DNA of 64,000 bases from Escherichia coli. Lineage in GTDB: Bacteria > Pseudomonadota > Gammaproteobacteria > Enterobacterales > Enterobacteriaceae. Below the pieces are notes generated by a model. That model made no database searches, had not been told where the DNA came from, and was given only the letters and a program-made list of their open reading frames with translations. Positions 694-15,078 of the stretch are shown here, in pieces. Position 1 is the first letter of the stretch. Every line of letters begins with the position of its first letter. The stretch lies in NCBI RefSeq assembly GCF_044324785.1, contig NZ_CP172127.1. One strand, 5' to 3'. The position numbers were made by a program, and so were the translations under genes.

Positions 694-727
694 CAGCCCG
701 ACGAACTGTTTCGCCGGGCTGATTTTT
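694..727 (+). terminator. Intrinsic terminator after perM (hairpin plus T-run), lying between convergent perM and focB
   Basis: GC-rich inverted repeat cagcccgacgaa...ttcgccgggctg followed by TTTTT at 723-727. Confidence 0.6.
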
Positions 728-1574
728 AGGGTTCCTGACGTAAATAAATAGCCCGATAACAAATACTCACCAGCACTGCACCGCCGATAATATTACCCAG
801 CATCACCGGGAGCAGATTGGCAGTAATAAAATGGCTGACCGTCAGTGCCGGAAAATGGTCTGCGCTACTGTGCGCCAGTTGCCAGAAGGTGGTAGGGGCG
901 AAATGGCGAATGGCAATGGCGAACGGAATCACAAACAAATTGGCGATACAGTGCTCAAAACCACTGGCGACAAACAGGGTGATGGGCAAAATCATGGCGA
1001 CGATTTTGTCGCATAACGAACGTCCGCAATAACTCATCCACAGCGCCAGGCAAACCATCACATTGCACATAATGCCGAGGCTGACTGATTCAGTAAATGT
1101 ATGATGCATTTTGCCCTCGGCGCAGTGTAAAACCGCGACTCCCCACATCGCGTTTTCACTCATCACCAGCCCGGAAAACCAGATTAACAAACTGAAACAG
1201 GCAATACCTGCCAGATTACCGCAGGCCACCAGAAGTGCATTAATCAGCCATGTTCGCCAGCTAATAACGCCCCGACTTTTTGCCATCACCGTCATTACCG
1301 ACGAGGTGAACAGGCTGGTGCCGCAAACCGCCAGCAAAATAAAGCCGAGTGTAAAGCAAAGGCCTCCCACCAGATGGGTTAATGCCTGTGAAGACGGGGC
1401 ATCGGCGATAACGGTAAGGTAAAAAGTAAATCCGATCGCCATAAACACGCCTGCGGACACCGCCATTAAAAAGACCGACACTTTGCTGCGGGCAATTTTA
1501 TGGGCGGCAATCCGTTCAGCGATTGCCGCTTTTCTGGCGCTCAACTGCAAGTCGAAAGAGAGTTTGTTTCTCAT
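726..1574 (-). CDS. focB: Formate channel FocB (formate/nitrite transporter family)
   Basis: 282 aa ORF, same length as E. coli FocB; membrane protein; immediately downstream of hyfR on the same strand. Confidence 0.93.
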   Translation of the reverse strand: MRNKLSFDLQLSARKAAIAERIAAHKIARSKVSVFLMAVSAGVFMAIGFTFYLTVIADAPSSQALTHLVGGLCFTLGFILLAVCGTSLFTSSVMTVMAKSRGVISWRTWLINALLVACGNLAGIACFSLLIWFSGLVMSENAMWGVAVLHCAEGKMHHTFTESVSLGIMCNVMVCLALWMSYCGRSLCDKIVAMILPITLFVASGFEHCIANLFVIPFAIAIRHFAPTTFWQLAHSSADHFPALTVSHFITANLLPVMLGNIIGGAVLVSICYRAIYLRQEP

Positions 1575-1595: not shown

Positions 1596-3608
1596 TTACA
1601 ACACCTCGCGAACCGAGATCCCCAGACGCTGCATTCGTGACAGCAGCGTGGTGCGCTTCATCCCTAATCGTGTCGCCGCGCCACGGGGCCCGGCAACAAT
1701 GCCATTGGTTTCTCGCAATACCTGAACAATGCGCTGACGTTCTTCTTCGTCATTCTCTGGCGTCGTCGGGTGCAGCAACTGCGCCATTGAACTGCGAAGC
1801 GCTGAATCTTCATTTAGCGTCGGCAGTAAACGGCTTTGTCGGACATTAAGATGTAAATTCAGACTGTTACCGCGAGTCAGTAGTACCGCTCGCTCAATCA
1901 CGTTTTCCAGCTCGCGCACGTTGCCCGGCCAGTCCCACGACATCAACTGGCGTAGCGCCTCGGTCGGGATGGCGTCAATTGCGCGATTCATATGGCGCGC
2001 CATTTTTTGCGTGAAATGCTTTGCTAAAAGAGGGATATCTTCCGGACGGTCGCGTAGCGGGGGCAATTCCAGTGGGAAGACATTCAGGCGATAAAAGAGA
2101 TCGCTGCGAAACTGGCGATCTTCAACCATTTGCCACAAATCACGGTTGGTGGCGGCAATGACTCTGACATTCACCGGGATCGTTCTACTCCCGCCGAGAC
2201 GCTCAATCTCCCGCTCCTGCAATACGCGCAGCAGTTTAGGCTGAAGTTCTAACGGCAGATCGCCAATTTCATCGAGAAACAACGTGCCGCCATCGGCAAT
2301 TTCAAAACGACCACGATGGGTATTAATCGCACCAGTAAACGCCCCTTTGTCATGACCGAATAACTCACTTTCCAGAAGACTGGCGGGGATGGCAGCGCAG
2401 TTGATTTTGACCAGTGGCTTGTCGCGTCGTGGGCTAAGTTGATGGATCGCTCTGGCGATCACCTCTTTGCCGGTTCCGGTTTCACCACAAATCAACACCG
2501 TACTGTCGCTCTTCGCCACAATATCTACCTGCTGGAGTAGGTCTTCCATTGCCTGGCTTTGATAGATAATGTCACCGACGCCCAGATTCGAAAGGAGCTG
2601 CTCGCTAAGCTGGTGGTTTTCTTGCTGCAAACTTTCCTGCAAATCGGTCATGCTGCGCCAGGCATCGGCATTGCCAACGGCAATAGCGATGCGATCGGCA
2701 ATATGTTGTAGTAGCTGGCAGTTTTCCTCACTAAAGAGAGTGGAAGAGGTATGCGCCAGCAACAATGCACCCGGTGTATGGTTGCCAAAGGTGAGCGGTA
2801 TCAGGAGCGCAGATTCGCAGCCGTTAGATGCAAGTAAGTGTAATAACGGGTCGCGTTGCCAGAGAAACAGATCGTCTGCACGGTGCGTCAAGGTCGGTTG
2901 TCGGGTTTGTAGCGTTTGTGTCAGCAATACACTTTCGCCAGGCATACTGCGTGGCAGACATGCACAATCTGAGGCGGAAAAAACGCTGCACCACAGGCTG
3001 AACTTCTCGTTCTTTCGATGATCGCCCAGTACCATACTGACTGAAGCCAGACCGAAAAAATGATGGATCTCACGAGCGACGTCAGCGATCAGATCGTCGA
3101 GATCAAGATGTGACAATACTGCATTAGTGATATCCACCAGTACCCGATGATGATCGCGATCTTTCTCCAGCAAACGCAGCGCCACCTGCTGTTCTTCATC
3201 ATTGAGCCATGATTGCAGAACCGGGGTGATTATCCGCGCCAGCCAGTTAAACAGTGTGCAATCCTGGGGAGTAAAACGGCTGCCGTGAGTGCGAATAAAG
3301 CGTAGCTCCGCCATTCCACTACTGCCGAGAAGGACGGCGTGGCGCGAATAATCGACCATCTCGCCCTGATACTCTGTTGTTGCCGTCACATCGCTGCCAT
3401 CATCATGGTAGCGGTAATAGAAGTTGCTTTTGAGAACATGCAGTTCAATAAGTTGTACCGGGCTGAACGGCGGCGGCAGCGGGATGAAGGCGCGTAATAA
3501 AGACGCCTTGCCGTGTTTCTGCGCTAACCGCTCCGCGAGCATTCCGTTTACCGCTTCAATTGTTATTCCTTGCGGCGGGGCAAACATCGCCTCGTCTGAC
3601 ATAGCCAT
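1596..3608 (-). CDS. hyfR: Sigma-54-dependent transcriptional activator HyfR (FhlA-like)
   Basis: ORF contains Walker A GETGTGKE and the sigma-54 interaction motif GAFTGA plus a C-terminal HTH; 670 aa from the ATG at 3608 (the ORF track begins one codon earlier at TTG). Confidence 0.93.
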
Positions 3609-3637
3609 CAACAGTCCTTATTAATGAGAAATCCTTC

Positions 3638-11719: not shown

Positions 11720-13738
11720 TTAGACGGCAATAGCGATTAGCAGCACAACCAGTGCGGCGATCACATACAGGCAATAGAGACGAAAGTCGCCGCTTTGCAG
11801 ATGCTGTATTTCTTTGGCCAGCCGTTGGGTGGCGCTCACGATGGGGCGGATCACCCGCTCATCCCAGAAGGGTTCTGTGCTCTGAGCCCTGGCGGTGATG
11901 TGCGCAAGACCTTTATTTAGCTTCAGCGTAGGGTCGAGCTGTTGTCGTAGACGAAATAGCGCAGAAAAGACCACACGCAGCGGCTGCATCACGCCATTGC
12001 CTGACGGGGCCATCGCATTATCCCAGCCGTAGCCGCATGCCCAGGCATCTCCTGTGCGACGAAACGCTGCGCGGCGCGAACGACGCCACAGCCAGTAAAG
12101 GCCAGGCAGCAAAGGCATCGCCAGTAGTAACAGCAACAGTAATGAGGGAGTGACCCGTGTATGAAACGTGCCGGGTACAAGTGCTATTCCGCTGGCGACA
12201 GTGACGGGAGGGGTATTGGTAAACGCATGGGCAATGTGCATTATCTTCGGTGCCAGCCAACTGGCACTAAGCGCAATGAATACGCAGAGTGCCGCGAGCA
12301 GTAGCATGGCGACGATCATCGTATTTGGCACTTCCTGTGCCTCTTCAGCGTGTGTACTGCGCGGCGCTCCACAGAAAGTAATACCGTACATTTTGGCGAA
12401 GCACATTACTGCCAGCCCACCAGTGACTGCCAGCATCACCATAGCAATAGGACCCGCAAGTTGTAGCGCTACGGCTTCCACACGACTTAGTGAGAACAGC
12501 GACTGCCAGGTGTACCATTCGCTGATAAAACCATTCAGCGGAGGAATGGCTGATATCGCGAGGCAACCAATCAGGCATGCTGCGGCTGTCCACGGCATCC
12601 GTTTTGCCAGTGCCCCCATTTTTTCCATGTCGTGGGTATGCAAACGCGAAATAATCGCACCCGCGCCGAGAAACAGCAGCCCTTTGAACAGTGCATGGTT
12701 GAGCAAATGAAACAGCGCGCCGAGCAGTCCAACCACGGTGAGCAGCGGGTCGTGCAGTGACAGACCGACCATCGCCACACCGACCGCCAGCAAAATAATG
12801 CCGACGTTTTCGACGGTACTCCAGGCCAGCAGCCGTTTGATATCCTGTTCCGCCAGCGCATACAGCACTCCCAGGAGCGCGGAGATTGCGCCGATCGCCA
12901 TCACCAGAATGCCCCACCACAGCGGCAAACCCGTTTGCGCCAGCAGGTCCATCGCTACTTTCAGGATGCCGAAAATACCGATTTTGACCATTACGCCAGA
13001 CATCAACGCCGAAGCGTGCGATGGTGCGGCAGGGTGAGCGCGTGGCAACCAGCTGTGCAACGGCATCATCCCGGCTTTCGCGCCAAAACCGAAGAAGGCC
13101 AGCAGGAACACCGCCGACGCCAGCCCCGGAGAAAGTGAAAGCGTGCGGAAACTGGCAAAATCGAGGCTGCCGCTTTCGCGCCACATCAGCAAGAAGGCGA
13201 TCATAATCAGCACCGATCCGGCGTGGGCGATAAAAAAGTAGAGCATGCCAGCGTTGATTGACGTTTTATCCTGCCTGGCAATGACCAGAAACCAGGAAGA
13301 CAGCGACATCATTTCAAACAGCACGATGAACCAAAAAGCGTTATCCATCACCAGCAGGGCAACCATCGATGCGATGAAAAGATTCATAAAGAAGCCCATT
13401 GCCGCCGCGCCTTTGCCCTCGTATTCGCGCATATAAGTCAATGAATAGAGCGAACAAACCCCCACCAGCAAGGAGATAACCAACACCATAAATGCCGAGA
13501 GGCTATCCATTCGCAGGGTTAAATCGGCAAAATCAAAAGGCGTGGCAAAACGGGCGACTAAAGTTACGCCTGCATGTAATTGCGTAATTCCGCTGATGAT
13601 GCCAATCACGCCGCCCACCAGCGATGTGATGCCGGAAAGCTTAATAGTCAGTCTGTCCAGACCGAGTAAAAACAGCGAAGCCAGACTGGCAAACAGATAG
13701 AGGATCAGCGACCAGGTTAATAATTGCAGGGCATCCAT
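11720..13738 (-). CDS. hyfB: Hydrogenase-4 membrane subunit HyfB (NuoL/HycC-like)
   Basis: 672 aa polytopic ORF matching E. coli HyfB. Confidence 0.92.
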   Translation of the reverse strand: MDALQLLTWSLILYLFASLASLFLLGLDRLTIKLSGITSLVGGVIGIISGITQLHAGVTLVARFATPFDFADLTLRMDSLSAFMVLVISLLVGVCSLYSLTYMREYEGKGAAAMGFFMNLFIASMVALLVMDNAFWFIVLFEMMSLSSWFLVIARQDKTSINAGMLYFFIAHAGSVLIMIAFLLMWRESGSLDFASFRTLSLSPGLASAVFLLAFFGFGAKAGMMPLHSWLPRAHPAAPSHASALMSGVMVKIGIFGILKVAMDLLAQTGLPLWWGILVMAIGAISALLGVLYALAEQDIKRLLAWSTVENVGIILLAVGVAMVGLSLHDPLLTVVGLLGALFHLLNHALFKGLLFLGAGAIISRLHTHDMEKMGALAKRMPWTAAACLIGCLAISAIPPLNGFISEWYTWQSLFSLSRVEAVALQLAGPIAMVMLAVTGGLAVMCFAKMYGITFCGAPRSTHAEEAQEVPNTMIVAMLLLAALCVFIALSASWLAPKIMHIAHAFTNTPPVTVASGIALVPGTFHTRVTPSLLLLLLLAMPLLPGLYWLWRRSRRAAFRRTGDAWACGYGWDNAMAPSGNGVMQPLRVVFSALFRLRQQLDPTLKLNKGLAHITARAQSTEPFWDERVIRPIVSATQRLAKEIQHLQSGDFRLYCLYVIAALVVLLIAIAV

Positions 13739-14355
13739 TAGCGTTGCTCCTGAGTGAGGGAAAGGGGATCCTCCCCGCCATTGGCAAACCAGCTTGCGGC
13801 AAGGCGCTGTTTTTCTTTCATCTGGCGTTGCAGGCTATCGTCGGTGATCAGCCGTAACGCCTTATTCGGGCAAGCGCGAACGCATGCCGGACCTTCTGGC
13901 AAGAAATCACACAGGTCGCATTTCACCGCGACGGTCTGGACACCCGGTTCCCAGCGCAGCAACGCATGTTGGGTCGACACGTTTACTTCTCCGTCTTTGA
14001 GTGAGCCCTCAGCCTGAAAAACATATTGCGCAGGGGCATTCACCGGACGGCTTCCTGAAGCGCTGATTGCGCCAAATGGGCAGACCACGGCACAAAGCTT
14101 GCAGCCAATACAGAGGCTTTCGTTGAGTTGGATCGCATCATCCCTCTGGGAGATGGCATTGACCGGGCAGACCTGCAGGCAAGGGGCTTCCTCACAGTGA
14201 TGACACACGACAGGGGCAGTGAGTGTTGACGTCTTCGCCAGGGCCAGGCGCGGGTGTTGCTGTAAACCTTGCGTTTTATGCACGTCCGAACAGGCAGCGA
14301 GACAGGTATTACATCCTGTACACCACAGTGGTTCGGCCACCACAAAGCGGTTCAT
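13738..14355 (-). CDS. hyfA: Hydrogenase-4 ferredoxin-type subunit HyfA (multiple [4Fe-4S])
   Basis: Several CxxCxxCxxxC motifs; the ATG at 14353-14355 with AGGAG 8 nt upstream gives 205 aa; the ORF-track ATG at 14392 lies upstream of the predicted transcription start. Confidence 0.9.
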   Translation of the reverse strand: MNRFVVAEPLWCTGCNTCLAACSDVHKTQGLQQHPRLALAKTSTLTAPVVCHHCEEAPCLQVCPVNAISQRDDAIQLNESLCIGCKLCAVVCPFGAISASGSRPVNAPAQYVFQAEGSLKDGEVNVSTQHALLRWEPGVQTVAVKCDLCDFLPEGPACVRACPNKALRLITDDSLQRQMKEKQRLAASWFANGGEDPLSLTQEQR

Positions 14356-14396
14356 GTCGGCTCCTTGAAAATGATATGAAACATTGCATTTCATAT

Positions 14397-14412
14397 TGCA
14401 TAAAGGATGCCA
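14397..14412 (-). promoter_or_regulatory. Sigma-54 (-24/-12) promoter of the hyf operon
   Basis: Minus-strand sequence TGGCATcctttaTGCA fits TGGCAC-N5-TTGCA with GG and GC at the correct spacing, about 40 bp upstream of the hyfA ATG; hyfR in the same operon encodes a sigma-54 activator. Confidence 0.7.
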
Positions 14413-14538
14413 GTCTGATTAATTTAATATATTCAATAAGTTATGAATTAACTGTATTCTGAACGGTACAAAAATGATGGTCATTAACGTTCAGCAAAAA
14501 ATGAATTCGACACCCGTGTCGCAGGGGAAAGCGAGAAT

Positions 14539-14552
14539 GTGATCTTGATCAC
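14539..14552. promoter_or_regulatory. Inverted repeat GTGATC-tt-GATCAC about 140 bp upstream of the hyf sigma-54 promoter; candidate enhancer or CRP-like site
   Basis: Perfect 6-bp arms; also reads TGTGA-N6-TCACg; position is typical of an enhancer-binding-protein site. Confidence 0.3.
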
Positions 14553-14607
14553 GAGAAGTGAGGTGTGCTGACCGCAAGCGCAGCCAGCACGGAATGGAGC
14601 AAAGTAA

Positions 14608-15078
14608 TCAGGCGTGTTCTTTCAGCCAGTTCAGCACAACGTCGTGGTGATTGCTGGTTTTGAAATCGTCAAAGACATGTTCGATTTTGCCATCAGCGTC
14701 AATCAGGAAGCTGATGCGATGAATACCATCGTAGGTTTTGCCCATGAAGGACTTTTCACCCCAGACGCCGAATTGTTCGCACACCTGGTGGTCCTCATCA
14801 GACAGGAGCGTAAAGTTAAGCAGCTCTTTTTCCGCAAAACGGGAGAGTTTTTCGGGTTTATCGGTGCTGATACCCAGCACATCAACGCCCGCTTTTTTCA
14901 ACTCATCCATGTTATCGCGTAAGCCGCAGGCTTGTACGGTACAGCCGGGGGTCATGGCTTTCGGGTAGAAATAAACCAGAACACGCTGTCCCTGGAAGTC
15001 GGTCAAATTAACTTGTTCTCCGTCTTGATCCGGCAAGCTAAATTTCGGTGCGATATCACCGGCTTTCAGTGGATTCAT
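14608..15078 (-). CDS. bcp: Thiol peroxidase Bcp (peroxiredoxin)
   Basis: 156 aa; peroxidatic Cys in the TPGCT context; its start overlaps the gcvR stop by 1 nt. Confidence 0.95.
   Translation of the reverse strand: MNPLKAGDIAPKFSLPDQDGEQVNLTDFQGQRVLVYFYPKAMTPGCTVQACGLRDNMDELKKAGVDVLGISTDKPEKLSRFAEKELLNFTLLSDEDHQVCEQFGVWGEKSFMGKTYDGIHRISFLIDADGKIEHVFDDFKTSNHHDVVLNWLKEHA

Follow-up and report, generated by a model that had tools for sequence, protein, structure and literature searches.

The known sigma-54 promoter of the hyf operon and the start codon of hyfA in Escherichia coli

The gcvR-bcp-hyf locus

The window, by which we mean the whole 64-kb stretch of E. coli DNA that was analysed, covers the gcvR-bcp / hyfABCDEFGHIJR-focB region, in which hyf occupies the minus strand. 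Along this strand the local gene order is gcvR, bcp, hyfA and hyfB, and the operon, which is the hydrogenase-4 operon hyfABCDEFGHIJR-focB, runs on to hyfR and focB (Table 1). A spacer of 252 bp separates bcp from hyfA and holds the promoter, the leader and a series of conserved upstream boxes. At the far end of the operon, hyfR encodes its own sigma-54 enhancer-binding activator. The longest open reading frame (ORF) of hyfR opens with a TTG codon and spans 671 aa; as with hyfA, translation may in truth begin elsewhere than at this mechanically assigned codon.

A 451-bp query laid across the feature was 100% identical to strain N3, and 5,424 of the 5,426 complete E. coli genomes matched the bcp part of the query or more. 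Of the 5,426, 4,297 carry promoter and leader, and all but one of these carriers (4,296/4,297) share 95% identity or more over 90 bp in this within-species comparison. As the promoter and leader region hardly varies within E. coli, within-species variation does not discriminate for or against the in-frame ATG upstream of the accepted start (ATG1). The remaining genomes (1,129/5,426) lack the hyf promoter and hyfA (region 14336-14700). Their match stops after bcp, at ~140 bp of the query and some 50 bp beyond the bcp stop codon. This break suggests that the hyf operon was deleted or replaced in particular lineages, with the junction falling in the bcp-hyfA spacer.

Table 1. Features of the bcp-hyfA spacer and of the hyf operon, in window coordinates; negative positions are relative to the predicted +1.
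Feature	Position	Strand	Description
CRP-like palindrome cGTGATCAAGATCACA	14538..14553	(-)	-167..-152; GTGA-N6-TCAC core; putative
GC-rich hairpin after bcp stop codon	14565..14590	(-)	predicted fold; no U-tract
Palindrome CGACAC-GGG-TGTCG	14508..14521	(-)	-135..-122; conserved as CGACAC-N3-TGYCG in three genera
Conserved box TGACCATCAYTTTTGT	14468..14483	(-)	-97..-82; invariant but for one position in Escherichia, Citrobacter and Kosakonia
IHF-like element TAACTTATTGAAT	14431..14443	(-)	-57..-45; reverse complement of WATCAANNNNTTR with one mismatch
Sigma-54 (-24/-12) promoter hyfAp CTGGCATCCTTTATGCA	14397..14413	(-)	GG 14411-14410, GC 14399-14398
ATG1	14392..14394	(-)	in frame with hyfA; longest-ORF start; inside the promoter, -8..-6
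Predicted transcription start (+1)	14385..14386	(-)	motif centre 14405 minus 19 = 14386; 30-31 nt upstream of ATG2
Short 5' leader of hyf mRNA	14356..14386	(-)	~31 nt, carries AAGGAG
Shine-Dalgarno AAGGAG	14361..14366	(-)	AGGAG 14365-14361; 5-nt spacer (CCGAC) before ATG2
ATG2	14353..14355	(-)	hyfA start codon; 205-aa product
hyfA CDS	13738..14355	(-)	205 aa + stop; 4Fe-4S ferredoxin-type subunit of hydrogenase 4; start ATG2; Pfam Fer4 domains
hyfR	1596..3611	(-)	GAF PF01590 and Sigma54_activat AAA+ PF00158 (E=4.6e-75); coordinate of the longest-ORF TTG start
focB	726-1574		formate/nitrite transporter

Sigma-54 motif, predicted transcription start and leader

The spacer carries, upstream of hyfA and in the same orientation, a -24/-12 element whose GG and GC are exactly 10 bp apart in a TGGCAC-N5-TTGCW-like context. 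The element, TGGCATCCTTTATGC, spans 14412..14398 of the minus strand with the GG-N10-GC arrangement of canonical sigma-54 spacing. Extended by one base, TGGCATCCTTTATGCA (14412-14397) fits the N-containing consensus TGGCACNNNNNTTGCW at 14 of 16 positions, a count in which five N positions are included. The original prediction had placed a sigma-54 promoter upstream of hyfA with its -12 GC at ~14398, and the GC is indeed found at 14399-14398. The distance to hyfA leaves a leader of plausible length, and a cognate AAA+ enhancer-binding protein with a sigma-54 interaction domain is available in the product of hyfR. A single match to the strict pattern TGGCAY-N6-TGCW lies in the 64-kb window, where shuffles lead one to expect 1.22, and at least one match arose in 73 of 100 shuffles. 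With a count so close to chance, the motif alone is not significant and its reality must come from context. We therefore take it as real on the basis of its place and orientation in the spacer, its conservation among orthologues, and the published chromatin immunoprecipitation (ChIP-seq) and genomic-SELEX data for sigma-54. A simple consensus scan of positions 14200-14760 returned no sigma-70-like promoter. The heptamer ATGCAAT occurs as a direct repeat on the minus strand (14401-14395 and 14389-14383) that spans the -12 element and the predicted +1; we rejected the second copy as a second -12 element because no matching GG lies 10 bp upstream of it.

Placing +1 at 19 bp downstream of the motif centre, a rule taken from Bonocora et al. 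(2015; PMC4591121), predicts transcription from 14386, in agreement with the start near 14385 that had been proposed. Window positions 14385-14386 correspond to about 2601170-2601171 of K-12 (NC_000913.3). Counted from the GC at 14399-14398 to a +1 at 14386, ATG1 falls at -8 to -6 and is thus not part of the sigma-54 transcript, as the original prediction held for this ORF-track ATG (14392-14394). A conserved block, AAYGTTT, starts at 14385, exactly at the predicted +1. Primer extension by Skibinski et al. in 2002 reportedly put the start 30 bp upstream of hyfA, with -24 and -12 boxes appropriately placed, which we take to be position 14385 of the window. In the same work a hyfA-lacZ fusion reportedly lost its activity when rpoN was mutated, or when the GG or the GC was changed to TT. 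The exact +1 is thus a probable position, drawn from the prediction, from the 'confirmed' flag of EcoCyc as relayed by Bonocora et al. (2015; PMC4591121) and from the start reported in 2002 by Skibinski et al.

In the predicted fold of the leader, the AGGAG at 14365-14361 would pair with five bases near the 5' end. A scan of 14250-14700 against Rfam at E<=1 matched no RNA family, and a riboswitch or leader RNA reading was dropped on this ground. An out-of-frame ATG lies at 14384-14382 on the minus strand, 1-2 nt from the predicted mRNA 5' end. It opens an upstream ORF (uORF; 14352-14384, minus strand) of 10 codons, MFHIIFKEPT*, whose TGA overlaps the ATG of hyfA (ATGA). Translation of such a nearly leaderless uORF could influence initiation at hyfA, and might be one cause of the well-known poor expression of hyf in E. 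coli. We regard this as quite unlikely, given that Citrobacter has ACG in place of the ATG and that in Kosakonia the ATG lies in the hyfA frame. As the uORF ATG is not conserved, the AAYGTTT block is best read as a constraint at the DNA level or on the initial transcribed sequence.

Choice between the two in-frame ATG codons

The two ATG codons that could begin the hyfA frame differ sharply in their ribosome-binding context. Pairing with the anti-Shine-Dalgarno sequence amounts to -7.7 kcal/mol for ATG2 against -1.5 for ATG1. The 2,071 ATGs of the window average -2.5 kcal/mol, and only 2.3% of them reach -8.0 or stronger, the tabulated threshold nearest to the value of ATG2. ATG1 has no Shine-Dalgarno sequence and pairs more weakly than this window-wide mean. 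The AGGAG that the original prediction placed 8 nt upstream of ATG2 is present, although five bases separate the two and a distance of 8 is obtained only from the middle of AGGAG. Homology draws the same boundary. Position 1 of the NCBIfam profiles for AegA, YgfT and HydN aligns to residue 14 of the 218-aa ORF, and in each of the 43 orthologous loci that could be compared the tblastn match begins with the first residue of the 205-aa form.

These loci come from a scan of one genome per species, which yielded 45 loci of the HyfA/HycB type, 43 of them with the N-terminus in view. No Escherichia or Shigella loci were among them, so the closest genus for comparison is Citrobacter. The aligned M/V-NRF codon is the start in 43/43 loci, with NRF at residues 2-4 in 41 of them. 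An ATG 13 codons upstream occurs in none (0/43), and 22 of the 43 have an in-frame stop within those 13 codons. Within 260 nt upstream, 31 of the 43 loci have the pattern TGG[CT]A-N7-TGC on the coding strand, where 0.32 were expected. The motif stands at -57 from the start codon in E. coli, -57/-54 in Citrobacter, and -58 in both Kosakonia and Dickeya, and TGGCA and TGC are invariant in these last three genera. Where the motif is missing, a stop usually precedes the gene by 7-8 codons, and such loci look like hycB-type second operon genes. Among them, L025, L026, L028, L031-L033 and L038 lack an upstream sigma-54 motif, carry CGTCA(T/A)AAATGAC upstream together with a stop at 7-8 codons, and look like genes of this type rather than hyfA orthologues; GTG starts were seen in L025, L026 and L038.

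The whole spacer was aligned for E. coli, four Citrobacter and two Kosakonia, which share the gcvR-bcp-hyfA synteny, and the alignment resolved discrete conserved blocks with unconserved DNA between them. The blocks are the CRP-like palindrome, CGACAC-N3-TGYCG, TGACCATCAYTTTTGT, TAAC..TTGA, TGGCA/TGC, AAYGTTT, the Shine-Dalgarno sequence, and ATG2 with the coding sequence. The -24/-12 elements, the Shine-Dalgarno sequence (its GGAG in both Citrobacter and Kosakonia) and ATG2 are invariant, whereas the column of ATG1 is not conserved in Citrobacter and Kosakonia. The unconserved ATG1 column, together with single-base indels between the -12 element and the Shine-Dalgarno sequence, gives a pattern that fits non-coding DNA.

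Existing annotation follows the shorter form. Both RefSeq/PGAP for strain N3 and K-12 b2481 give hyfA as 618 nt with a start equivalent to window position 14355. The exact 205-aa HyfA is found on 291 contigs and belongs to a cluster of 3,736 HyfA entries, almost all of 205 aa. The exact 218-aa product was absent from a collection of ~15 billion proteins.

ATG1 could still be a genuine alternative start on bcp read-through or other upstream transcripts, giving a 218-aa HyfA with the 13-residue extension MKCNVSYHFQGAD. No stop interrupts the frame between ATG1 and ATG2, and as the hairpin after bcp lacks a U-tract, leaky termination may give read-through transcripts that contain ATG1. The codon is also essentially invariant within E. 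coli, which promoter constraint explains equally well. Against such use stand the missing Shine-Dalgarno sequence (-1.5 kcal/mol, weaker than the -2.5 mean of window ATGs), an extension found in no orthologue and interrupted by an in-frame stop in 22/43, paralogue profiles that begin at residue 14 of the long ORF, the lack of a sigma-70-like promoter in the spacer, and the fact that no gene caller on record made the 218-aa protein for this allele. We judge the use of ATG1 very improbable, and a weaker alternative than the uORF.

Initiation at ATG2 is thus supported by four lines that do not depend on the promoter: the Shine-Dalgarno sequence, the profiles, the orthologue starts and the non-conservation of ATG1. 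ATG1 is promoter DNA that is in frame by accident and not a real start codon. The start proposed originally, the ATG at 14353-14355, agrees with the Shine-Dalgarno sequence, the profiles, the 43 orthologous loci and RefSeq. The further proposition that the promoter fixes this start is sound in its logic and right in its choice of the second ATG; the promoter is not needed for it, as homology and the Shine-Dalgarno sequence already suffice. It corrects only the naive longest-ORF call; real annotation needed no correction, RefSeq being already at 14355. The longest-ORF track makes hyfA 13 codons too long and carries it into its own promoter, a lesson for quality control. A careful reading of the sequence alone recovers the accepted hyfA start, with little significance beyond such control.

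Sigma-54 occupancy, upstream elements and known systems

Occupancy of the promoter by sigma-54 is documented in K-12. The K-12 site ATGGCATCCTTTATGCA, to which the promoter core of the window is identical, was bound in vivo by sigma-54 in ChIP-seq (Table 1, OS23, FAT 16, in Bonocora et al., 2015; PMC4591121). In the same study the site faces hyfA, its predicted start lies 31 bp before the gene, and it is flagged 'C', the mark of sites experimentally confirmed in EcoCyc (PMC4591121). In genomic SELEX, the bcp-hyfA spacer gave the highest peak for the RpoN holoenzyme with NtrC and 92% of the maximum for the RpoN holoenzyme alone (Shimada et al., 2021; PMC8743547). Many sigma-54 sites were transcriptionally inactive under the conditions tested (PMC4591121), and the hyf operon is poorly expressed in K-12 (PMC7384014). 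These two observations, and a motif frequency equal to chance expectation in the window, are what speaks for a -24/-12 match that is fortuitous or inert, with hyfA read from another promoter and the motif saying nothing on the start codon. We find this reading scarcely credible. The site lies between genes, faces hyfA at a distance of 31 bp, keeps a position of -54 to -58 in three other genera and recurs in 31/43 loci. It is bound by sigma-54 in vivo and in vitro (PMC4591121, PMC8743547) and 'confirmed' in EcoCyc, and its operon has a sigma-54 activator gene of its own, hyfR. The start-codon conclusion would hold even without the promoter. The feature is almost certainly the known sigma-54 promoter of the hyf operon with an already annotated start, and nothing new. 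Literature and databases have documented the hyf promoter, its dependence on sigma-54 and the 205-aa HyfA since 1997-2002, with genome-wide reconfirmation in 2015 and 2021.

An activator site, a bend and the -24/-12 elements make up the standard sigma-54 architecture, and the layout of the spacer fits it. The sigma-54 RNA polymerase would bind the -24 GG and -12 GC at 14412-14398 as a closed complex, which an AAA+ activator (FhlA or the operon-encoded HyfR), bound ~100-135 bp upstream, would open. Opening would probably be aided by an IHF-type bend, plus CRP further upstream. Transcription from ~14386/14385 would then produce a ~31-nt leader with AAGGAG, and translation of hyfA from ATG2 (14355) would yield the 205-aa protein.

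For several of the upstream boxes, sequence and conservation suggest a candidate protein. The CGACAC-N3-TGYCG palindrome is a candidate enhancer (UAS) for FhlA or HyfR because its TGTCG/CGACA half-sites and an 8-mer, CGACACGG, recur in the hycA-hypA intergenic region of K-12. The same stretch (14521-14508) was the one terminator-like hairpin, a weak hit, in the consensus scan; a protein-binding palindrome is more likely, as both half-sites are kept across genera and the 3-base spacer varies. The exact IHF consensus WATCAANNNNTTR has no match in the spacer, and the IHF-like element is partly conserved (TAAC...TTGA). Because the spacer offers only this one-mismatch site, we infer rather than assert a role for IHF. 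The single variable position (Y) of the TGACCATCAYTTTTGT box is T in E. coli and C in the other six sequences; in E. coli only, the box lies within an inverted repeat, CTGAACG-N22-CGTTCAG (14494-14459). The putative CRP site reads TGTGAY-N5-ATCACA in Citrobacter and TTTGAC-N5-ATCACA in Kosakonia. Self et al. in 2004 reportedly found that hyf expression needs cAMP-CRP, which fits this palindrome. In Citrobacter, a GC-rich hairpin at the equivalent place after bcp is followed by a T-run; in E. coli, bcp may be terminated less efficiently or by other means. The conserved boxes (CRP-like, CGACAC-N3-TGYCG and TGACCATCAYTTTTGT) provide a cross-genus footprint useful for studying the near-silent hyf operon, and enlarge a known system without revealing a new one.

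The closest known counterpart is the K-12 locus itself. The hyfAp of K-12 (OS23 of Bonocora et al., 2015) is the same locus and the window is identical to it from -24 through the start codon, with the same flanking bcp and hyfB and a 205-aa HyfA of the same length and start. The two differ in the base 5' of TGGCA, which is A in K-12 and C here, in a few SNPs further upstream in the spacer, and in a handful of allelic differences in HyfA, of which the allele of the window is the one counted above on 291 contigs. At the protein level, HyfA has in common with the HycB, HydN and AegA-N-terminal family the N-terminus MNRF(V/I)(V/I)A(D/E)P..C..C, and no member of this family has the 13-residue MKCNVSYHFQGAD extension of the longest ORF. 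Among promoters, the FhlA-activated members of the formate regulon (hycA, hypA, fdhF and hydN) share with hyf the TGGCA-N7-TGC core and short leaders of 20-31 nt (Table 1 of PMC4591121). Also in common are TGTCG/CGACA repeats ~100-135 bp upstream, and the hyc-hyp spacer contains the identical 8-mer CGACACGG. In contrast to these promoters, hyf has its own activator gene, hyfR, at the operon end, and its -12 element is ATGCA where the formate regulon has TTGCA/T. Finally, hyf has a conserved CRP-like palindrome at -160, whereas the hyc-hyp spacer is without one.
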